In this document: one piece after another, positions 13,422 through 60,766 of the stretch
Position numbering within the stretch: position 1 is the stretch's first letter
Layout: the number at the start of each line of letters is the position of its first letter
From: Sumerlaeia bacterium
GTDB lineage: Bacteria; Sumerlaeota; Sumerlaeia; SLMS01; JAHLLQ01
DNA: 64,000 nt
Direction of reading: 5' to 3'
Assembly (NCBI GenBank): GCA_040219255.1
Contig: JAVJSW010000060.1
Coordinates: 6,249-70,248, forward strand
Position numbers and translations under genes: made by a program
Notes under the pieces: generated by a model
The model's database searches: none
The model's input: only the letters and a program-made list of their open reading frames with translations
Told to the model about the DNA's origin: nothing

Positions 13422-13473
13422 CCCCGCCGGCCCCCGCCACTCCGAACCGAGTGGTGGGGGCCGGTTCTTTTTA
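13422..13473 (+). terminator. Rho-independent terminator after the metalloprotease gene
   Basis: Hairpin ccccgccggcccccgccactc...gagtggtgggggccgg followed by ttctttttatt. Confidence 0.6.
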
Positions 13474-17444: not shown

Positions 17445-17590
17445 GCAGATGGTTGAGTGTGGCTTTTTGGTCACAAAATCTAGCGATTTTTGGCGTCATA
17501 ATGCGTTGTTTTCCATTGTCTCGCAAATCGATGTTAAATTTACTCCGTCCAGCGTTTTCAATGCCCTAACCTTTTCACCCGGAGTTCATC

Positions 17591-18079
17591 ATGAAGTTCC
17601 AGAACATTCTCTTGGCCATGGGTTTCCTGGCAGCTACTTCCATCCCTAATATGACCACCGCTGAGTGCGATACCTGCGGCGGCAAGTGCGAAAAGTCTGT
17701 GTCGGCCAGAGATTACAAGGCTTGCACCAATTGGCTGGGAGGTGGTGGTCAGGTCTACATGACCCGTCACGCGAGCTATCGGTGCGACCGAAACAAGCAG
17801 ATTGAGGGCGGATGCAGCGGCACCACCCCAAGTGGTCCAGCCTATACGATTTTTGGCTACGCCCACAATATCAACGAAAACGAATGCGTCGTGCGCTTCG
17901 AACTGAACGGCACGGTCTCGACGATCATTTCCGATTCAGCCTCGCCCTCATTGCCCGAAGGTTCCGTGGTTCTTTCGGTGACCTGCTATGACCGTGATCA
18001 ATGCATCGTGATCAGTTATGAAGAGCCAACTGAAAGCGGCACTGCGAACGAATGCGCCTACCCGTCCTGCAGCGCCTAG
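17591..18079 (+). CDS. Small secreted cysteine-rich protein (12 Cys), unknown function; low-GC gene
   Basis: Signal peptide 'MKFQNILLAMGFLAATS'; GGAG RBS at 17581; about 54% GC versus about 66% in flanking DNA. Confidence 0.55.
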   Translation: MKFQNILLAMGFLAATSIPNMTTAECDTCGGKCEKSVSARDYKACTNWLGGGGQVYMTRHASYRCDRNKQIEGGCSGTTPSGPAYTIFGYAHNINENECVVRFELNGTVSTIISDSASPSLPEGSVVLSVTCYDRDQCIVISYEEPTESGTANECAYPSCSA

Positions 18080-18174
18080 CCGCCTGCAAGCTTCGGCAAA
18101 TAAACAATGCTTCCATCTCAAACCCCTTGGCTCTCCTATGCCAAGGGGATCTTATCATCTTTAAGGACCGCTTC

Positions 18175-19533
18175 ATGTCATTCAGATACTGGGTCGTCTT
18201 ATTCATCTTTTTATGTCCCCTGATCGCATTTTGTCAAGAGCCTGACATTCGTGATTTTCCCCCTTTGGAAGCCGCAATCGCATGGCCAATCATCGAGCAG
18301 GGGACGTTCGAAGGCGTCGTGGAATCTTCCGGACCTCCTCCGATGACGTCACGCGAGGTGGAAGCAAGTCTAATGGATGTCGAAACCGACTTTCTTGCGA
18401 CTTTAGCGGAGAGTGGTGAGGAGCTGTCGGCGGATTACCGGGAGATACTGGACGAATTCCTTGAGGAGCAAAGAGGTATATTGGAAAAGCTGCTTCTGCC
18501 TACGAATTCAAAAAAGAATTTTACGGTGTCGCTTTCCGGTCACCAGATGCGGCTTGAGTCGAGGATTTACGAGGATGATAGTTCCGTTTCCGAAGAGACG
18601 ATGACGGTGATTGGTCCAGAGGGGAAAAAGATCCTCACATCGAATATCCGATATTCCCGCCCAAGTGCCTACATATTTTTGGACGATGCCAAGAACGCTC
18701 CGGAAGACGCTATTTACGGCAACATCCTGGGTACGATCGGGACGGAGTTAGCCAAGGCGTCCACCCTGAATTTGTCGAGCAAGGATCTGGAAGGCGACAA
18801 GGTCTATTGGTTCGAGGCCACGGACATCAAGACAGACTTTTTCGACATTTACAGGGATGGCGCGGTTTCCTTCACGCGTATTGGCGTACGCTCTCAACAC
18901 GGCAACCGCCTCTCCGTCTATTTCAGCCAAGTTGGCGAAACCTTTCGACTCATCAATCGATATGACGACTTCCGAGAGGTTCCTGGATGGGGGTGGTATC
19001 CGCATGAAATCACGCTCATAACTCAGAATGGCGTCTTTGACAAGGAGGTTCTCCAGCGTATCCGCTCCGGGGCTCTGGCCCCCAACACCGACGAAGCGAT
19101 CGCCGCCTTCGCCCCTCAAGTAGAGAATGTGAAGACGATTACTTTGAGCAAAGTGGACATCGAAACACCGGTGGAAAAAGACGTTTTCGATTTCGAAATT
19201 CCAGTCGGCACCGTAGTCAAAGTCTACACCGGAGATGAGTCCAGCACCTACGTTCAGGGGGACTTTTCCGCGAGAGATGTTGTTACCGGCAGAAAGGTTG
19301 ACATGGCGGCGGGTCTGGAATTGGCCGAGGGAACTTCCCAGACTAAGGAGGAGATTGCCGAAACGCCTACACGTGAAATTGTTTCCGATACGCCCGCCAA
19401 GGTGGAACAGAAGGTAGAACCGCATGTCGTCGAACCAGCGAAGTCCAAGCGAAATGGAATGATCTTCGGCCTTCTTGCCGTTTCCTTCGTTATTGGCTTG
19501 GGACTTGTATTCAAGGTCTTTCGTAAGAAGTAA
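18175..19533 (+). CDS. Secreted protein with a C-terminal TM anchor, unknown function (possible LolA/RseB-like fold); low-GC gene
   Basis: ATG at 18175 with N-terminal signal peptide 'MSFRYWVVLFIFLCPLIAFC'; C-terminal 'GMIFGLLAVSFVIGLGLVFKVFRKK'; about 48% GC. Confidence 0.55.
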   Translation: MSFRYWVVLFIFLCPLIAFCQEPDIRDFPPLEAAIAWPIIEQGTFEGVVESSGPPPMTSREVEASLMDVETDFLATLAESGEELSADYREILDEFLEEQRGILEKLLLPTNSKKNFTVSLSGHQMRLESRIYEDDSSVSEETMTVIGPEGKKILTSNIRYSRPSAYIFLDDAKNAPEDAIYGNILGTIGTELAKASTLNLSSKDLEGDKVYWFEATDIKTDFFDIYRDGAVSFTRIGVRSQHGNRLSVYFSQVGETFRLINRYDDFREVPGWGWYPHEITLITQNGVFDKEVLQRIRSGALAPNTDEAIAAFAPQVENVKTITLSKVDIETPVEKDVFDFEIPVGTVVKVYTGDESSTYVQGDFSARDVVTGRKVDMAAGLELAEGTSQTKEEIAETPTREIVSDTPAKVEQKVEPHVVEPAKSKRNGMIFGLLAVSFVIGLGLVFKVFRKK

Positions 19534-19679
19534 TTTCCCTATCTCCACAGCGAATCTCAGTCTCCACAACGATCCAAATCTGCGCGGCCTTTCCCACGGC
19601 CCCCACCTCCCACTGCCTTTTGCAACGCATCGAAAACGTTGACACCGAAATGTGGTGCAATTAGGAATGCGTTTGGATT

Positions 19680-22298: not shown

Positions 22299-22340
22299 GC
22301 CCCCGGCCCGCCCCAGCGCAGGCCGGGGGCGGATTGCTTA
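22299..22340 (+). terminator. Putative terminator hairpin after the S51 gene
   Basis: gcccccggcccg...cgggccgggggc hairpin; weak U-tract. Confidence 0.35.
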
Positions 22341-22696
22341 AAGGTAGCACGGGCGTCCCGCCCGTGACCCGCCAGCCGCCTGCCACGCCCTATTCTGTTA
22401 TCGCAAACGCACTGTTCGCAGAGGAAGCCGAGAGTCGGCTCTCGGAGAAAAAGCGCTGCTGGGCACGGGCGGGACGCGCCGTGCTACACAGAAATATTAA
22501 ACCATGGTATTACCGAGATAAGAAACACATCCTCCACCACATGGTTGCAACCACCCTCATCCGCGCCATCCGCGCGATCCGCGCGATCCGCAGCAAAAAA
22601 TCCCCCTCCCTCTTGCCAAGCCCCCGCCCCCTGTGCCAGCGTCCCCCGCTCGGCGCGCTTGCGCTTTACACCACAGGACTTACGCCACCGATCCTC

Positions 22697-24319
22697 ATGA
22701 CCACCCTCCAAGAAGAAATCGCCCGCCGGCGCACCTTTGCCATTATCAGCCACCCGGACGCGGGCAAGACGACCTTGACGGAAAAGTTCCTGCTCTATGG
22801 CGGGGCGATTCACCTGGCCGGTGAAGTCCGCGCCCGCCGCACGCGCCGCCACGCCACCAGCGATTGGATGAGCGTGGAAAAGGAACGCGGCATTTCCGTG
22901 ACGACGTCCGTGATGCAGTTTCCCTATGGCGGCCGGCTGTACAATCTGCTGGATACGCCGGGGCACCAGGACTTCAGCGAGGACACCTATCGCACCCTGG
23001 CCGCCGCCGACTGCGCGATCATGTTGATCGACGCGGCCAAAGGCGTCGAGGCCCAGACGCGCAAGCTCTTCGAGGTCTGCCGCCTGCGGGCGATGCCGAT
23101 TTTCACGTTCGTCAACAAGATGGACCGCGAAGGCCGCGAGCCTCTCGATCTGATGGACGAGGTCGAGAAGCTCCTGGGCATTCATTGCGTGGCACGCAAC
23201 TGGCCCATCGGCCAGGGCCCGACCTTCAAAGGCGTTTACGACCGCGACAAAGACATCGTCCACCGCTTTGAACGCGGCACCGACCACGGCTCCACCAAGG
23301 TGATGACCAACGTGACCGGCGGTGCGAAAGACAAGCTGGCGGAGCTGATCGGCGTGGACGGCTCGGCGCGGTTCCGCGACGAACTGGAATTGCTCGACAT
23401 GGCGGGCGAGCCCTTTACGCGCGAGGAATTCCTGACGGGCGAAGTGACGCCGGTGTTCTTTGGCAGCGCCCTGACCAACTTCGGCGTCGAGCCCTTCCTG
23501 GAAGCCTTTGGCGAGTTGGCCCCCACGCCCCGCAGCCGCACCACCAGCGAGGGCGAGGACCGCGAGCCGGAGAACGAAAAGTTCAGCGGCTTTATCTTCA
23601 AAATCCAAGCCAACATGGACAAAAACCACCGCGACCGCATGGCGTTCCTGCGCGTGGTCAGCGGCCATTTCGAACGCGGCATGAACGCCAAAATCGCCCG
23701 CAACGGCGATACCGTGCGGCTCAATAACGCCACGACGTTCTTCGCCCAGGAACGCACAGTGGTGGAAGAAGGCTATCCCGGCGACATCATCGGCCTCTAT
23801 GATCCGGGGATTTACGCCATCGCGGACACCCTGACGGAACCCGCCGAGCAGTTCGAGTTCGAGGGCATTCCGCGCTTCTGCCCGGAACTCTTCAGCCGCG
23901 TCCTCGCGCCGAACCCGATGAAGCGCAAGCGGCTCGACAAAGGCCTGCAGCAGCTCAGCGACGAAGGCACGATCCAGGTTTTCTACCCGGCCGACAACAT
24001 GACGTCGCCCGAGCCCGTGTTGGCGGCCGTCGGCAAACTGCAACTCGAAGTGGTTCAGCAGCGCATGCTGGAAGAATACGACGTCGAGATCAAGCTGGAG
24101 CCGCTGCCCTACACGGCGGCGCGGTGGCTCGACGCGGACCGCGACGAAGTGAACTGGCAGCAGTTCCGCCGCTCCGGCATCAGCGACGTCATCGCCGATC
24201 CGCGCGGGCGGTTGCTCGTCGTCTTCCGCGACGAGTGGACCCTGCAATACGCCATCCGCAACGCCACGGAAAACATCGTCTTCCGCACCACCGCGCCCGA
24301 GCCGAAGGCCATAAAGTAA
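22697..24319 (+). CDS. prfC: Peptide chain release factor 3 (RF3 GTPase)
   Basis: 'RRTFAIISHPDAGKTTLTEKFLL', 'DTPGHQDF', 'NKMDREG'; ATG at 22697; the upstream in-frame extension from 22334 is rejected. Confidence 0.85.
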   Translation: MTTLQEEIARRRTFAIISHPDAGKTTLTEKFLLYGGAIHLAGEVRARRTRRHATSDWMSVEKERGISVTTSVMQFPYGGRLYNLLDTPGHQDFSEDTYRTLAAADCAIMLIDAAKGVEAQTRKLFEVCRLRAMPIFTFVNKMDREGREPLDLMDEVEKLLGIHCVARNWPIGQGPTFKGVYDRDKDIVHRFERGTDHGSTKVMTNVTGGAKDKLAELIGVDGSARFRDELELLDMAGEPFTREEFLTGEVTPVFFGSALTNFGVEPFLEAFGELAPTPRSRTTSEGEDREPENEKFSGFIFKIQANMDKNHRDRMAFLRVVSGHFERGMNAKIARNGDTVRLNNATTFFAQERTVVEEGYPGDIIGLYDPGIYAIADTLTEPAEQFEFEGIPRFCPELFSRVLAPNPMKRKRLDKGLQQLSDEGTIQVFYPADNMTSPEPVLAAVGKLQLEVVQQRMLEEYDVEIKLEPLPYTAARWLDADRDEVNWQQFRRSGISDVIADPRGRLLVVFRDEWTLQYAIRNATENIVFRTTAPEPKAIK

Positions 24320-24486
24320 CATGGCCGTCCCGGCCCTGCCGGCACTCTGGACGCCCACCCGGCTTGGATAATCTAAGCCGCTCGCCCGTGGGCTGGCGGG
24401 TCTGGCCCGCACGGAAACGACTTCGCCGGAACGCCTCCGCCGGCGGGTGAGGACTGACGAATCGATTCGTTCAACGCAAGCACGCT

Positions 24487-24590
24487 CATGGTTCGGGGCT
24501 CCGGTGAGGATGGGGAGAGCCTAGGCGAAGGCATGGCGAAAAGTCAAGCCTCATTCGCAAAAAATTCGCCTTGCGCCGCCGGGGCCGGGG
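24487..24590 (+). repeat. Conserved intergenic motif, copy 1 (about 100 nt, candidate structured RNA)
   Basis: Shares the GGGCTCCGGTGAGGATG...CTAGGCGAAG...GGCGAAAAGTCAA...TTCGCC core with 59583-59680. Confidence 0.4.
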
Positions 24591-24634: not shown

Positions 24635-26191
24635 ATGCACTCTCGCCTGCCCACCTTCGCCGTTCTCGGGATCGATGCTTTGCCCATCGATGTGGAGGTC
24701 GATTGCCAGGACGCGAACAGTATGGACACGGCGGTGTGGACGATCGTGGGGCTGGGCGACGCGGCGGTGAAGGAAAGCCGCGAGCGGGTGAAGGCGGCTC
24801 TTAAGAACAGCGGGTTCAGCGTTTCACAGCGGCGCGTGACGGTGAATCTGGCGCCGGCGGATGTGCGGAAAATGGGGGCGCATTACGATTTGCCGATCGC
24901 GCTGGGGGTGTTGACGTCGACGGCGCGCATCCCGCCCGAGCGCGCGGCGCGCTACGCGGCGGTGGGCGAACTGGGGCTCGATGGCGGCATCAAAGCGGTG
25001 CCGGGGGCGTTGTCGATGGCGGTGGGTGCGGCGCGGGCGAGGCTGGATGGGCTGATCGTGCCGGAGGACAACGCGCAGGAGGCGGCCTTCGTGGCGGAGA
25101 CGGCGGTCATTCCGGTGCGGTCGCTGGTGGAGGCGGTGGGTTTTCTGCGGGGCGAGCTGGAGATCGCGCCGGCGCGGCCGGCCCCGGCGGCGGAGGGCAA
25201 CGGCGCCCGCGATCCCTGGAACGGGGTGGACATGCGGGATGTGCGGGGCCAGGAAAACGCCAAGCGGGCGCTGGAGATTTCGGCGGCCGGCGGGCACAAT
25301 CTGCTGCTGATCGGCGCGCCGGGCAGCGGCAAGACGATGCTGGCGAAGCGGCTGCCGACGATCCTGCCGGAAATGACGTTTGGCGAGAGCCTGGAGACGA
25401 CGAAGATTTTTTCCATCGCGGGCCAGCTCGACCGGCGCGAGGGCCTGATCCGCCGCCGGCCGTTTCGCTCGCCGCACCACACCGCGTCCTCGGCGGCGAT
25501 CATCGGCGGCACGGCGTCGCCGCGCCCGGGCGAGGTGAGCCTGGCGCACAACGGCGTGTTGTTTCTCGACGAGTTTCCCGAGTTCGACCGGCGGGTGCTC
25601 GAGGTGCTGCGGCAACCGCTCGAGGACGGCGTGGTGCAGATCAGCCGGGCGCAATTGTCACTGTCCTTTCCGGCGAACTTCATCCTCTTCGCGGCGATGA
25701 ATCCGTGCCCCTGCGGGTACTTCGGGGCGGAACGGGGCGAGCGGCGCTGCACCTGCAATCCGATGCAGATCACGCGCTACCGGGGCAAAATCAGCGGCCC
25801 GCTGCTCGACCGCATCGACCTGCACGTGGATGTGGCGCCGGTGGCCATCGAGGATCTGCACCGGCGTGCCGAGGGCGAGCCCAGCAAGACGGTGCGCGCC
25901 CGGGTGCAATCGGCCCGCGCGCGCCAGCAGGAGCGCTTTCGCGACCGCGAGAGCCTGCACTGCAACGCGCAAATGCTGCCCGCCGATATGCGGCGGTTCT
26001 GCGAGCTGGATGGGCCGAGCGAGGCGCTGCTGGAGCAGGCGATGAAAGCGCTCGACCTCTCGGCCCGGGCCTACGACCGCATCCTGAAAGTCGCCCGCAC
26101 CATCGCCGACCTGGACGGCCGCGACGCCATCGCCCCCGAACACATCAGCGAGGCGGTGGGGTACCGGACGTTGGACCGGGGGGTGGGGTGA
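24635..26191 (+). CDS. comM: YifB/ComM family Mg-chelatase-like AAA+ ATPase
   Basis: N-terminal Lon-like subdomain, 'LLLIGAPGSGKTMLAKRL' Walker A, and C-terminal 'ARAYDRILKVARTIADLDG'. Confidence 0.85.
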   Translation: MHSRLPTFAVLGIDALPIDVEVDCQDANSMDTAVWTIVGLGDAAVKESRERVKAALKNSGFSVSQRRVTVNLAPADVRKMGAHYDLPIALGVLTSTARIPPERAARYAAVGELGLDGGIKAVPGALSMAVGAARARLDGLIVPEDNAQEAAFVAETAVIPVRSLVEAVGFLRGELEIAPARPAPAAEGNGARDPWNGVDMRDVRGQENAKRALEISAAGGHNLLLIGAPGSGKTMLAKRLPTILPEMTFGESLETTKIFSIAGQLDRREGLIRRRPFRSPHHTASSAAIIGGTASPRPGEVSLAHNGVLFLDEFPEFDRRVLEVLRQPLEDGVVQISRAQLSLSFPANFILFAAMNPCPCGYFGAERGERRCTCNPMQITRYRGKISGPLLDRIDLHVDVAPVAIEDLHRRAEGEPSKTVRARVQSARARQQERFRDRESLHCNAQMLPADMRRFCELDGPSEALLEQAMKALDLSARAYDRILKVARTIADLDGRDAIAPEHISEAVGYRTLDRGVG

Positions 26192-31079: not shown

Positions 31080-31164
31080 GCGAGCGTGGCGGAATTGGCA
31101 GACGCACCAGGTTTGCGTCCTGGCGGGGAAACCCGTGGGAGTTCGAGTCTCCCCGCTCGCACCA
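31080..31164 (+). tRNA. Class II tRNA (Leu-type body, 13-nt variable arm, A73, encoded CCA) whose anticodon loop reads UUUGCGU, giving anticodon UGC (Ala) as read
   Basis: Manual fold: acceptor GCGAGCG/CGCTCGC; D-arm GGCGGAATTGGCAGACGC (near-identical to bacterial tRNA-Leu); anticodon stem CCAGG/CCTGG; T-arm GGGAG-TTCGAGT-CTCCC. Confidence 0.7.
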
Positions 31165-35545: not shown

Positions 35546-35580
35546 GACGAAGAAAACCCCGCTCTGGAGAGAGCGGGGCG
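35546..35580 (-). terminator. Rho-independent terminator downstream of rplY
   Basis: Hairpin ccccgctctggagagagcgggg followed on the minus strand by gttttcttcg. Confidence 0.5.
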
Positions 35581-37737: not shown

Positions 37738-38693
37738 GCCGGGCGCCGGCCCAGGAAGTCGAACTGGTGTGCGATATAGACCAGTTCGCCGCGGTCGAGC
37801 TGGGCGTGGCGCTCGGCCATCCAGCGCGCGAGCCGGTCGGGCGGAAAGACGTCCGAGCGCTTTGCCAGTTCGCTTTCGAGATAATGCAGGATGCAGCGGA
37901 TGAAGTAGGCTTCCTCCGCCGGATAGGCGCCACCGGCGCCGGCATAGACAATCCAGTCGCTGCTCTCCGCCGCCAGGATTTCCGCCCCGGCGCGGCGGGC
38001 CTGGGCGAAGAAATGGCGCCCGGCGCGGCTGTCGCCTGACAGACGTCCCGCGATCCGGCGCTGGTCCATGGATTCGTGATAGAGGCGGATCGCGAGGGTG
38101 TCGTCCTCGGGGTCGCTGGTGGCGGGCTCGAGGGCCGTCTCGCCATCGAAGGTGATGGGGAAGTAGAAAAACCAGCCGGGCTCGAGCAGCTCGAGCCACC
38201 GGGGCAGCACCGCGTCCACATCGAAGAGGTCGAGCACGGCTTGCCCCATCAGGCCATGCACTCGGGGCGCGTTCGCGGGCCGGGCGGCGATCCAGTCGAG
38301 GATATCGACCTGGTGGAACTCGACTTCGACGCGCTTCATCTCGTGGCGATTTTCGAAGAGAACGAGCGTTTCGTCAAAGGGGCAGACACTCCAGCCCTCG
38401 CCGCGAGCCCAGGCCATGAGGCCTTCGCGCCCGGCGGCCAGGGCTTCGCCATCGATTTCCACCACCGTATAGTGGGCGTTGATTCCGGGCAGGGCCATCA
38501 CGCGGCGCAGCAGCGCCCCCGTGCCGCCGCCGATTTCGAGCAGGCGCCGCAAGCGGCCTCCGCCCTGGGGCCCGAAGATTTCGCCAACGAACCGGCCCCA
38601 GACGGCACGGCTGAGCGCGCGGTTGTCCACCGTCCGTTTGGATTCGAGGTAGCGGGGAAAAGAGAATTCGAAGGACGCGGCGGCGGCGGACAT
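37734..38693 (-). CDS. Class I SAM-dependent methyltransferase
   Basis: 'LLEIGGGTGALL' motif I; ATG at 38693. Confidence 0.65.
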   Translation of the reverse strand: MSAAAASFEFSFPRYLESKRTVDNRALSRAVWGRFVGEIFGPQGGGRLRRLLEIGGGTGALLRRVMALPGINAHYTVVEIDGEALAAGREGLMAWARGEGWSVCPFDETLVLFENRHEMKRVEVEFHQVDILDWIAARPANAPRVHGLMGQAVLDLFDVDAVLPRWLELLEPGWFFYFPITFDGETALEPATSDPEDDTLAIRLYHESMDQRRIAGRLSGDSRAGRHFFAQARRAGAEILAAESSDWIVYAGAGGAYPAEEAYFIRCILHYLESELAKRSDVFPPDRLARWMAERHAQLDRGELVYIAHQFDFLGRRPA

Positions 38694-58575: not shown

Positions 58576-59513
58576 CCCGGCTGCTCGACGCGGACGCTGG
58601 CGGAATCGCCGAGGCCGCCGCCCTGCTGCGTGCCGGAGAGGCGGTCGCCATCCCCACGGAAACGGTCTATGGGCTTGCCGCGGACGCCACCAATGCGGCC
58701 GCGGTGGAACGGATTTACGAGGCCAAAGGCCGCCCCGCCAACAATCCCCTGATCGTCCACGTGCCGGGCGCGGAGGCGGCCGCGAGATGGGCGGGCGCTT
58801 GGTCCGAGGACGCCGCCCGCCTCGCCGGGCGGTTCTGGCCGGGACCGCTGACGCTCGTGGTTCCGGCGGGCGAGGGGCTGGCCTCGAACGCCTTGGCCGG
58901 AGGGGCGACGGTGGGTTTGCGGGCCCCGGATCATCCGGTGGCGCTGGAGTTGCTGCGTGCCTGCGGATTGCCCTTGGCGGCACCGAGCGCCAACCGCAGC
59001 GGGTCGCTGTCGCCGACGCTGGCCCGGCACGTCGTCGAGGGCCTGGGGGGCCGTATCGCGGCGGTGCTCGATGGCGGACCGTGCCGGGTCGGGATCGAAT
59101 CGACGGTTCTGGACCTGGCGAGCCCCCAGGCCCCGCGCGTCCTGCGCCCGGGGGACATATCGGCGGAGGCTATCGCCCAAGTCCTCGGGCGCGCCGTGGG
59201 GCGGCTGGCGGCGGAGGCTCCCGCGTCCGGGCCGCTGCTGTCGCCGGGTTTGCTCACACGCCACTACGCCCCCGCGGTTCCGCTGCGGATCGTGGCGGGG
59301 GAATTGCTGGGCGGGGCGCCGGGGGACGCGGCGGTGTTGCGGCTGGGGCGCGACCTGCCGGAGGACCCGCAGGCCTTCGCCAGCGAACTCTATCGCCGGC
59401 TCTGGCTGGCACAGGCGGCCGGCGGGCGCGAGATCTGGCTGGAGAAACCGCCGGAGACGCCGGAATGGAACGCCGTCTGGGATCGGCTGCGGAGGGCCGT
59501 GGCGCGGGATTGA
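58572..59513 (+). CDS. tsaC: L-threonylcarbamoyladenylate synthase (Sua5/YrdC/TsaC family)
   Basis: 'VAIPTETVYGLAADA' and 'KGRPANNPLIVHV' YrdC motifs; ATG at 58572. Confidence 0.85.
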   Translation: MTRLLDADAGGIAEAAALLRAGEAVAIPTETVYGLAADATNAAAVERIYEAKGRPANNPLIVHVPGAEAAARWAGAWSEDAARLAGRFWPGPLTLVVPAGEGLASNALAGGATVGLRAPDHPVALELLRACGLPLAAPSANRSGSLSPTLARHVVEGLGGRIAAVLDGGPCRVGIESTVLDLASPQAPRVLRPGDISAEAIAQVLGRAVGRLAAEAPASGPLLSPGLLTRHYAPAVPLRIVAGELLGGAPGDAAVLRLGRDLPEDPQAFASELYRRLWLAQAAGGREIWLEKPPETPEWNAVWDRLRRAVARD

Positions 59514-59582
59514 GGGAAGACTTGGGCTGGCCGGCCCGCTGGCGGGGGAGGGCGGGCAGGTCGACTCGCTCCAGGAAAAGGC

Positions 59583-59680
59583 GTTCATCGGTCAGGGCTC
59601 CGGTGAGGATGCGCGGAGTCTAGGCGAAGAGAGGGCGAAAAGTCAATGGGTTTTCGTGAAAATTTCGCCCTTTGAGGCCA
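59583..59680 (+). repeat. Conserved intergenic motif, copy 2 (about 100 nt, candidate structured RNA)
   Basis: Homologous to 24487-24590 with a compensatory stem GGGCGAA/TTCGCCC. Confidence 0.4.
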
Positions 59681-59728
59681 ATCGTTGGACCATGGAGGTT
59701 CAGAGAGCGCTCCGGAGGACCGAGCTTT

Positions 59729-60766
59729 CTAGTGCTGGCGCACGAGAATTTCGTCCACCAGTTTGCGCATGATTTGGGCGGCGCGGTTGCTGGGGGGGAA
59801 GTCTTCGAGGGCGGCGATGGCTTGGGTGGAGAAATCGGCGGCCACTTCGAGGGAGGTGTCGATGGCCTTGTATTTGTGGACATAGCCCTGGACAGTGGCG
59901 AAATCGCGGCCATTGCCCAGCACGGCGCGCAGGGCTTCGCGGTCCGGGGCGTCGGCCACGGCGAGGGTTTGAAGGAGCGGAAGGGTCTGCTTGCCTTCCT
60001 TGAGGTCGGCTCCGACGCGTTTGCCCCAGTTGTCGGTCTGGGCTTCGTAATCCAGGGTGTCGTCGGTGATTTGATAGGCCATGCCGAAGGAGAGGCCGTA
60101 TTGGGCGGCGCGTTCGACGTCTTCGTATTCGGCGCCGGCGATCATGGCGCCGAGGCCGGAGGCGGCGCTGAAGAGAATGGCGGTTTTGCGCTCGATGATG
60201 GTCATGTAATCGTCGACGGTGAGCCAATCGCCGCGGCGCTCGATCTGGAGCATTTCGCCCTCGGTCATTTTTTGCGTCGTCTGGGCCAGGAGGCGGAGCG
60301 TGGCGGGGTTGAGCGTCGAGAGGGCGAGGTCGAAACTGGTGGCGTAGAGGAAATCGGCCATGAGGATGGCGACGTCGTCGCCCCACTTGGCGTTGACGGT
60401 TTCGCGGCCTCGGCGCAGGGGGGCTTTGTCGATGACGTCGTCGTGCAAGAGGGTGGCGACGTGGAAGAGTTCGATGGCGGCGGCGAGGGCGATGTGGCCG
60501 TCTTCGCGGTCGGCGTCGTAGCCGTGGGCGCGGGCGGCGAGGCAGACGAGGGCGGGGCGGAGCATTTTGCCGCGGCCTTGGCGGACGTAGGCGGCGACAT
60601 CGCGCATCAGGTCGCCCTGCACGTCATAAGCCCGGTCGATGGCGCCGCGGACGCGCTCCAAATCCGCACCGATGTAGTCGTACAAATAATCCACGAGGTG
60701 AAGGCTCTCCGTCTGCTCCGTTCCGGCGATTGTGCTTTTTTTCACAAGCCCGCCGGTCTCGAGCAC
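59729..60766 (-). CDS. ispB: Polyprenyl diphosphate synthase (octaprenyl/heptaprenyl-type trans-isoprenyl diphosphate synthase)
   Basis: 'LLHDDVIDKAPLRRG' first DDxxD and 'DDTLDY' second DDxxD; GTG start at 60766. Confidence 0.8.
   Translation of the reverse strand: MLETGGLVKKSTIAGTEQTESLHLVDYLYDYIGADLERVRGAIDRAYDVQGDLMRDVAAYVRQGRGKMLRPALVCLAARAHGYDADREDGHIALAAAIELFHVATLLHDDVIDKAPLRRGRETVNAKWGDDVAILMADFLYATSFDLALSTLNPATLRLLAQTTQKMTEGEMLQIERRGDWLTVDDYMTIIERKTAILFSAASGLGAMIAGAEYEDVERAAQYGLSFGMAYQITDDTLDYEAQTDNWGKRVGADLKEGKQTLPLLQTLAVADAPDREALRAVLGNGRDFATVQGYVHKYKAIDTSLEVAADFSTQAIAALEDFPPSNRAAQIMRKLVDEILVRQH

Follow-up and report, generated by a model that had tools for sequence, protein, structure and literature searches.

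Which kind of element occupies the spacers behind prfC and tsaC on this contig of a Sumerlaeia bacterium, and on which strand would it be read? According to the original prediction, a plus-strand motif of about 100 nt with a covarying stem occurs twice in the window, i.e. in the whole 64-kb stretch of DNA that was analysed, and represents a candidate small RNA (sRNA) or a structured untranslated region. The sequence blocks quoted for this motif are all present at their places and two copies were recovered; the conserved unit is, however, longer and comprises 152 nt. By sensitive blastn, 24419-24570 aligns to 59519-59669 with 109 of 152 identical positions (72%), a single gap and an E value of 9e-24, and the two stretches are homologous beyond doubt. 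They lie 35 kb apart on the same strand. The plus-strand 17-mer GGGCTCCGGTGAGGATG occurs in the whole window at exactly two sites, one in each copy (Table 1), and at zero additional sites if up to three mismatches are allowed; the arrangement CTAGGCGAAG-N4-GGCGAAAAGTCAA is similarly found exactly twice in the window versus 0 times in shuffled sequences. No third copy was detected in the 64-kb window using nhmmer with a profile of the two copies, and a weak third match at 37994-38018 is located inside coding sequence and was discarded as a chance match. An independent Logan assembly (run SRR26147846; copy 1 at loci L030/L031, copy 2 at L095) contains both copies without a single base difference, and they are, thus, not assembly artefacts.

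Relatives of the element were sought outside this genome. In the genome contigs, the pattern CCGGTGAGGATG-N8-10-TAGNCGAAG had 29 matches in unrelated taxa, none of which has the GGCGAAAAGTCAA block, so that they are regarded as chance matches; the same applies to 6 matches to the 17-mer plus TAG in metagenome contigs and to 53 matches to a 16-mer in viral contigs. When the viral matches were searched by nhmmer with the two-copy profile, only the seeded words were confirmed, and blastn gave no match in the plasmid and phage collections. As no homolog was obtained from the genome, metagenome, viral, plasmid and phage collections, the element is considered lineage-specific. ComM itself is 100% identical to a protein of a Sumerlaeia bacterium MAG; its next relatives reach about 69% identity and show no synteny at prfC-comM; in their genomes other genes precede comM and the spacers measure about 60 nt, hence they provide no orthologous intergenic region for comparison. 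No Rfam 15 family matched either locus, as the original prediction had proposed to check: at gathering thresholds the tRNA at 31080 is the only match in the whole window, and permissive scans of both loci with E values up to 10 returned only noise, of which the best hit, located outside the unit, scored 20.3 bits where the threshold is 41.2.

The genetic context was described correctly before, with prfC and tsaC upstream and comM starting 45 nt after position 24590. The prfC gene ends at 24319, comM/YifB starts at 24635 and tsaC/Sua5 ends at 59513; copy 2 is followed by a convergent minus-strand gene for a polyprenyl-diphosphate synthase (59729-60766). The distance from the upstream stop codon to the repeat unit is 100 nt in copy 1 (prfC) versus 6 nt in copy 2 (tsaC). 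The position relative to the genes is not consistent, as copy 1 lies upstream of comM and copy 2 has no plus-strand gene downstream, which makes a role as a 5' UTR shared by both copies, one of the options offered originally, impossible. In the minus-strand direction, neither copy has a minus-strand protein gene downstream. The 100 nt that separate the prfC stop codon from the repeat unit harbour a near-perfect palindrome, CGGCTTGGAT-A-ATCTAAGCCG (24360-24380; 10-nt arms, 90% complementary), which is specific to copy 1 and has no counterpart in copy 2. Two further observations concern the surrounding genes. The mechanically called prfC open reading frame (22334-24319) encodes 661 aa, of which RF3 models align only from residue ~123 onwards; translation, therefore, probably begins some 120 codons after the TTG called as start, or else the protein carries an unusual N-terminal extension. 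The G+C content of the window is 63.7%, and a stretch at ~17500-19600 has a lower one (0.53 versus about 0.64 for the window) and contains two open reading frames unlike their neighbours, one encoding a Cys-rich protein of 162 aa with a signal-peptide-like N-terminus (17591-18079), the other a protein of 493 aa with a hydrophobic C-terminal anchor (18052-19533). This stretch may have been horizontally acquired.

Table 1. Coordinates of the features of both repeat copies (window positions; sites and segments on the minus strand are predictions).
Feature	Position	Strand	Description
Repeat unit, copy 1	24419-24570	-	152 nt; inside the 315-nt prfC-comM spacer; nhmmer E 4.5e-49 against the two-copy profile
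Repeat unit, copy 2	59519-59669	-	151 nt; between the convergent tsaC and polyprenyl synthase genes
Upstream region, copy 1	24548-24570	-	GGCGAA, TTTTTT, GCGAA: A/T tract in UP-element position and two inverted TTCGCC-type half-sites
Putative -35 hexamer, copy 1	24542-24547	-	TTGACT; inside the invariant block TTGACTTTTCGCC
Putative -10 hexamer, copy 1	24518-24523	-	TAGGCT; 18 nt after the -35 hexamer; block CTTCGCCTAGGCTC, 13/14 conserved
Invariant 17-mer, copy 1	24496-24512	-	CATCCTCACCGGAGCCC; predicted start A 24511; CCTCACC and GGAG (24499-24502)
Putative transcribed segment, copy 1	24419-24511	-	Conserved, 93 nt; ATG 24487-24489
Terminator-like hairpin, copy 1 only	24323-24335	-	GGCCGGGACGGCC followed by ATGTTACTTT; abuts the prfC stop codon; weak, 1 site versus 0.5 expected in shuffles
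Putative -35 hexamer, copy 2	59641-59646	-	TTGACT; consensus match
Putative -10 hexamer, copy 2	59617-59622	-	TAGACT; 18-nt spacer; sole promoter-like site in 59400-59900 versus 0.0 in shuffles
Invariant 17-mer, copy 2	59595-59611	-	Predicted start A 59610
Putative transcribed segment, copy 2	59519-59610	-	Conserved, 92 nt; ATG 59586-59588
Dyad, copy 1	24523-24571	.	GGCGAA-N5-GGCGAA, 13 nt, TTCGCA-N5-TTCGCC; the stem of the original prediction
Dyad, copy 2	59623-59671	.	GGCGAA-N5-GGCGAA ... TTCGTG-N5-TTCGCC

The conservation between the copies is organized in blocks. On the minus strand, the 5' part consists of GGCGAA (6/6), a TTTTTT or ATTTTC tract, (G/A)CGAA and a stretch in which 0 of 6 nt are conserved; the core is formed by TTGACTTTTCGCC (13/13), a gap with 1/4 conserved, CTTCGCCTAG(G/A)CTC (13/14), a G+C-rich gap with again 1/4 conserved, and CATCCTCACCGGAGCCC (17/17). 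Past the 17-mer, the similarity continues for ~77 nt at roughly 60-85% identity and ends with AAGTC. The first two invariant blocks of the core contain hexamers as expected of a sigma-70-type promoter at a distance within the range of 16-19 nt (TTGACT-18-TAGGCT in copy 1, TTGACT-18-TAGACT in copy 2, both on the minus strand). In both copies, transcription is predicted to start at an A seven bases past the -10 hexamer, which is the canonical start position, and the invariant 17-mer accordingly begins at -1/+1. The combination is rare: TTGACN-N16-19-TANNNT is matched twice in 128 kb (both strands of the window), and both matches are the repeat copies. The relaxed pattern TTGNNN-N16-19-TANNNT has 14 matches in the window, of which four are intergenic and two of these four are again the repeat copies; generic consensus promoter matches otherwise occur at chance level in the window.

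The hexamers suit a window of 63.7% G+C: in Streptomyces and other high-G+C bacteria, housekeeping promoters have the consensus TTGACPu / TAGPuPuT. The repeat resembles HrdB-type sigma-70 promoters in TTGACT, in TAG(G/A)CT with the key positions T1, A2 and T6 kept, and in the 18-nt spacer, as well as in the A/T tract at about -45 to -55, the purine start 7 nt past the -10 hexamer and the G+C-rich discriminator. It differs from them in an unusually conserved spacer (14/18) and in the TTCGCC repeats, and this consensus may not be that of the Sumerlaeota. Taken alone, matches to a promoter consensus carry little weight. The only tRNA gene of the window is preceded by TTGATT-18 nt-CATAGT, which ends ~12 nt before the tRNA and renders canonical -35 and -10 elements with an 18-nt spacer plausible in this organism. 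Taken as a whole, the pattern of invariant blocks appears to fit a minus-strand sigma-70-type promoter with the initial transcribed region better than a plus-strand RNA. The earlier suggestion of an sRNA may be right in kind, but the minus-strand promoter fits better than the strand to which the sRNA had been assigned.

The tRNA gene itself, located at 31080-31164 on the plus strand, was called tRNA-Ala(UGC) by ARAGORN, and the anticodon UGC reads Ala codons. Its body is that of a tRNA-Leu, with a length of 85 nt, a variable arm of 13 nt, A73 and G37, and with G3:C70 in place of G3:U70; the full-length identity to E. coli tRNA-Leu(UAG) is 78.8%, the anticodon being UGC versus UAG. The Logan assembly SRR26147846 has the normal UAG at this anticodon. 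Over 13.7 kb, Logan and the window differ by only 7 mismatches (31036, 31037, 31074, 31079, 31115, 31116 and 31129), and a second Logan contig shows 0 mismatches over 10.9 kb. In a sample of eight genes of the window, GCG is used at 45 per 1000 codons. The UGC version might stem from a variant strain or a paralogous gene, might be charged with Leu while reading Ala codons, or might be an artefact of the consensus or the assembly.

What would be transcribed from the putative promoters? The conservation of ~93 nt past the predicted start corresponds to a typical sRNA length. The segment of copy 1 contains a palindrome, ACGAATCGATTCGT (24457-24470), and a second C-rich box, CCTCACCCGCC (24442-24452); for copy 2 a long hairpin with a C-rich apical loop, CCCUCCCC, is predicted. 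The second box, CCUC(A/C)CCCGCC, is situated ~60 nt downstream of the invariant 5' end and is predicted to form an apical loop in copy 2, not in copy 1. As a whole, the predicted 93-nt minus-strand transcripts fold no better than shuffled sequences (z +0.87 and -0.28). The weak terminator-like site of copy 1 is located 176 nt past the predicted start, or ~189 nt including the T-tract, and is possibly the 3' end of a roughly 190-nt transcript of copy 1. For copy 2 no intrinsic terminator was found, nor is a canonical one conserved in the unit. Elsewhere in the window, strong intrinsic terminators occur at gene ends, with a 17-bp stem followed by TCTTTTTATT at 13426-13465 and a 10-bp stem followed by TTTCTTCG at 35556-35579, indicating that this genome uses hairpin-plus-T terminators.

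The putative transcript might alternatively be a small-protein gene, since both copies have a conserved GGAG followed, at the equal distance of 9 nt, by a conserved ATG that opens a short reading frame (MSVLALNESIRQSSPAGGGVPAKSFPCGPDPPAHGRAA, 38 aa in copy 1), the first 18 residues of which show 7 identities and several conservative changes between the copies. We regard this as highly improbable. The substitutions in this frame are spread over the codon positions (5/6/6), an indel of 1 nt disrupts it from codon 18, and the frame is closed by a stop after 38 codons in copy 1 and stays open for 446 codons in copy 2, antisense through tsaC. The GC3 is 0.69, compared with 0.83-0.89 in the neighbouring genes; the peptide had 0 homologs among 1.84 billion protein representatives and no NCBIfam match, and no gene is called at this position in the Logan assemblies. 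With a frame that looks non-coding in these respects, any RNA made from the unit would most likely be non-coding and at least ~93 nt long.

A further characteristic of both copies is a dyad made of four TTCGCC-type half-sites at 11-bp spacing, which is centred on the -35 hexamer. The inverted repeats of copy 1 can be read as 18-nt arms with 72% or 10-nt arms with 90% complementarity; copy 2 has perfect 9-nt arms, AGGGCGAAA/TTTCGCCCT, at 59632-59640 and 59663-59671 (100% complementary). With at most one mismatch, TTCGCC-N5-TTCGCC sites are found in the window solely within the two repeat units. This dyad could be an operator for a regulator or, alternatively, an RNA or DNA hairpin. A putative operator at this position would explain why the promoter spacer is conserved beyond expectation.

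Based on these features, our preferred explanation, which we advance tentatively and with somewhat less than even confidence, is that the two copies are paralogous small-RNA genes, each equipped with a promoter and transcribed towards prfC and tsaC. Each copy would be a small autonomous minus-strand transcription unit composed of a sigma-70-type promoter and ~93 nt of conserved transcribed sequence. The proposed promoter comprises the A/T tract in UP position, TTGACT, the 18-nt spacer, TAGGCT or TAGACT, and a G+C-rich 6-nt discriminator; if it fires, transcription would start at the A residues listed in Table 1 and approach prfC and tsaC from their 3' ends. Two parts of the RNA, its invariant 5' end, AUCCUCACCGGAGCCC, and the second box, CCUC(A/C)CCCGCC, would serve as functional single-stranded, seed-like regions complementary to ribosome-binding sites of the GGAGG/GGUGAGG type, and the four half-sites around the -35 hexamer would act as operator. 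The minus-strand model is weakened mainly by the missing conserved terminator, by predicted transcripts devoid of a thermodynamic signal, by a consensus that may not be the native one and by a sample of two sequences; the spacer is also more conserved than a plain promoter would require. A further feature runs counter to it: the dyad keeps its complementarity through changes in both arms, and several of the pairs are G.U on the plus strand only.

This last feature belongs to the reading closest to the original prediction, in which the element is a structured plus-strand RNA, either as part of the prfC and tsaC 3' UTRs, as an intercistronic element or as an independent sRNA, with GGGCUCC/GGAG and long GGCGAA/UUCGCC hairpins. 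We consider this reading unlikely. It agrees with the position of each copy behind a plus-strand gene, in particular that of copy 2 directly after the tsaC stop codon, and with G.U pairs that would be A.C on the minus strand. The compensatory stem extension was recovered in so far as GGCGAA/TTCGCC is present in both copies and is lengthened in copy 2 by G:C where copy 1 has T/T; the covariation, however, rests on that one change. RNAalifold consensus structures, for which the alignment columns were shuffled 300 times as the null and the two-sequence alignment gives very low power, contain 34 pairs on the plus strand (6 double-change) and 33 pairs on the minus strand (3 double-change). The shuffles yield 3.9 +/- 1.6 double-change pairs on the plus strand, where 46/300 reach six, and 3.2 +/- 1.5 on the minus strand, where 196/300 reach three. 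The consensus energy is -34.35 on the plus strand versus -26.5 +/- 4.0 in the shuffles (14/300 reach it) and -26.5 on the minus strand versus -20.9 +/- 3.6 (23/300). Thus, the covariation does not exceed chance, and the energies of both strands give a marginal signal. Fold z-scores of the single copies range from +1.06 to -1.8 on either strand, with the exception of -2.84 for copy 2 over the originally predicted span; the corresponding span of copy 1 has -1.76, and over the whole units the plus-strand values shrink to +0.84 and -1.14. The minimum free energy structures agree between the copies only in the GGCGAA hairpin, neither a plus-strand promoter nor a terminator bounding the unit was found, and there is no Rfam match even at the permissive cut-off. 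Moreover, a plus-strand RNA gives no account of why the longest invariant blocks coincide with the -35, -10 and +1 positions of the opposite strand. The support claimed for a plus-strand structured RNA, including the covarying stem, therefore does not hold. Two other candidates were dismissed in this context: a long-range helix between the -10 region and the far end of the unit (two CG/GC swaps) is interrupted by mismatches and stays within the shuffle null, as expected by chance, and a plus-strand mini-ORF, ATG-N9-TAG, present in both copies was rejected because GAGG abuts the ATG without spacing.

Two readings dispense with a transcript, and both appear to us quite improbable. The dyad might be part of a regulatory module at the DNA level, an operator for an oligomeric factor composed of the four TTCGCC half-sites and a TCGA-centred palindrome, that controls or insulates, for example, comM. 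Both copies preserve the arrangement GGCGAA-N5-GGCGAA ... TTCGYN-N5-TTCGCC, its paired half-sites are restricted to the two units, and a block-wise sequence conservation without thermodynamic signal would be in line with such a role; yet copy 2 resides between convergent genes with no promoter there to regulate, the 17-mer and about 75 nt of further conservation fall outside the dyad, and no regulator gene is adjacent. We know of no such TTCGCC half-site operator. The copies could also be a neutral or decaying relic, left by the duplication of a fragment or by a mobile or repeated element of REP/BIME-like or MITE-like type, with blocks that reflect recent common origin instead of function. The occurrence of only two copies, 35 kb apart on one strand, the lack of homologs in the searched collections and the close ComM relatives, in whose genomes prfC and comM are not arranged in this way and comM is preceded by a spacer of only ~60 nt, are compatible with this. 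However, the divergence is strongly non-uniform, with blocks conserved at 13/13, 13/14 and 17/17 beside gaps of 0/6 and 1/4, which neutral decay would not give; the unit ends show neither terminal inverted repeats nor target-site duplications, there is no transposase or RAYT-like gene nearby, and the 35 kb between the copies consist of housekeeping genes of uniform G+C content and not of an att-bounded island. The comparison behind all of these readings covers two sequences. It supports a conserved, non-coding and probably functional intergenic element, and the pair of minus-strand sRNA genes remains the explanation we favour.

How does the element compare with described systems? Paralogous sRNA genes that share promoter and 5' seed are exemplified by OmrA/OmrB, PrrF1/PrrF2 and Qrr1-4. 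The repeat is similar to these in its two intergenic copies in one genome without an open reading frame signature, and in a promoter/operator region and first ~17 nt that are near-identical next to a diverged middle. Unlike a true relative, it shares neither sequence nor an Rfam family with them; the search for a conserved Rho-independent terminator found none, and the copies are 35 kb apart. sRNAs of the RsaE/RoxS type have C-rich seeds that pair with ribosome-binding sites; the repeat likewise possesses two CCUC-containing C-rich boxes, at the predicted 5' end and in the apical loop of copy 2, which are complementary to GGAGG-like sequences. This resemblance is one of logic only, as there is no homology and the loop is not predicted in copy 1. 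With REP/BIME elements and MITEs the repeat shares the nature of repeated intergenic DNA with inverted repeats. In contrast to REP/BIME elements, it is 152 nt long with asymmetric blocks instead of a 20-40-nt palindrome and has two copies in 64 kb; a known REP-type repeat, the finding that according to the original prediction would speak against it, did not turn up. Unlike a MITE or the end of an insertion sequence, it has no terminal inverted repeats, target-site duplication or nearby RAYT or transposase gene, and its neighbours are prfC, comM, tsaC and the polyprenyl synthase gene. Finally, it differs from att sites in that the repeats are only 72% identical and that the interval carries housekeeping genes (comM, amylase, rplY etc.) at even G+C content; the reading as a genomic island flanked by att sites was ruled out by this gene content and composition. 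Judged by its sequence characteristics, the element is not a member of any described family, given the negative Rfam result and the absence of the features that define REP elements, MITEs and att sites.

It might be speculated, although we consider it doubtful, that the two copies belong to a Sumerlaeota-specific sRNA family whose 5' end and C-rich box (CCUCACC) mimic the anti-Shine-Dalgarno sequence and mask the ribosome-binding sites of targets, the promoters being gated by a regulator that binds the dyad of four TTCGCC half-sites over the -35 hexamer. Lineage-specific sRNA paralogs are common in bacteria, and nothing in the two-copy repeat challenges current understanding. The Sumerlaeota (BRC1) are a phylum known only from metagenome-assembled genomes, and among the Sumerlaeota papers listed by a literature search none describes a regulatory RNA from these bacteria. 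Should the minus-strand reading hold, the two copies would be the first candidate sRNA genes, and their promoters would be among the first explicit promoter architectures, for the Sumerlaeota. The more specific scenario of seed-like C-rich regions under control of the dyad, if true, would give this uncultivated phylum its first described circuit based on a regulatory RNA.
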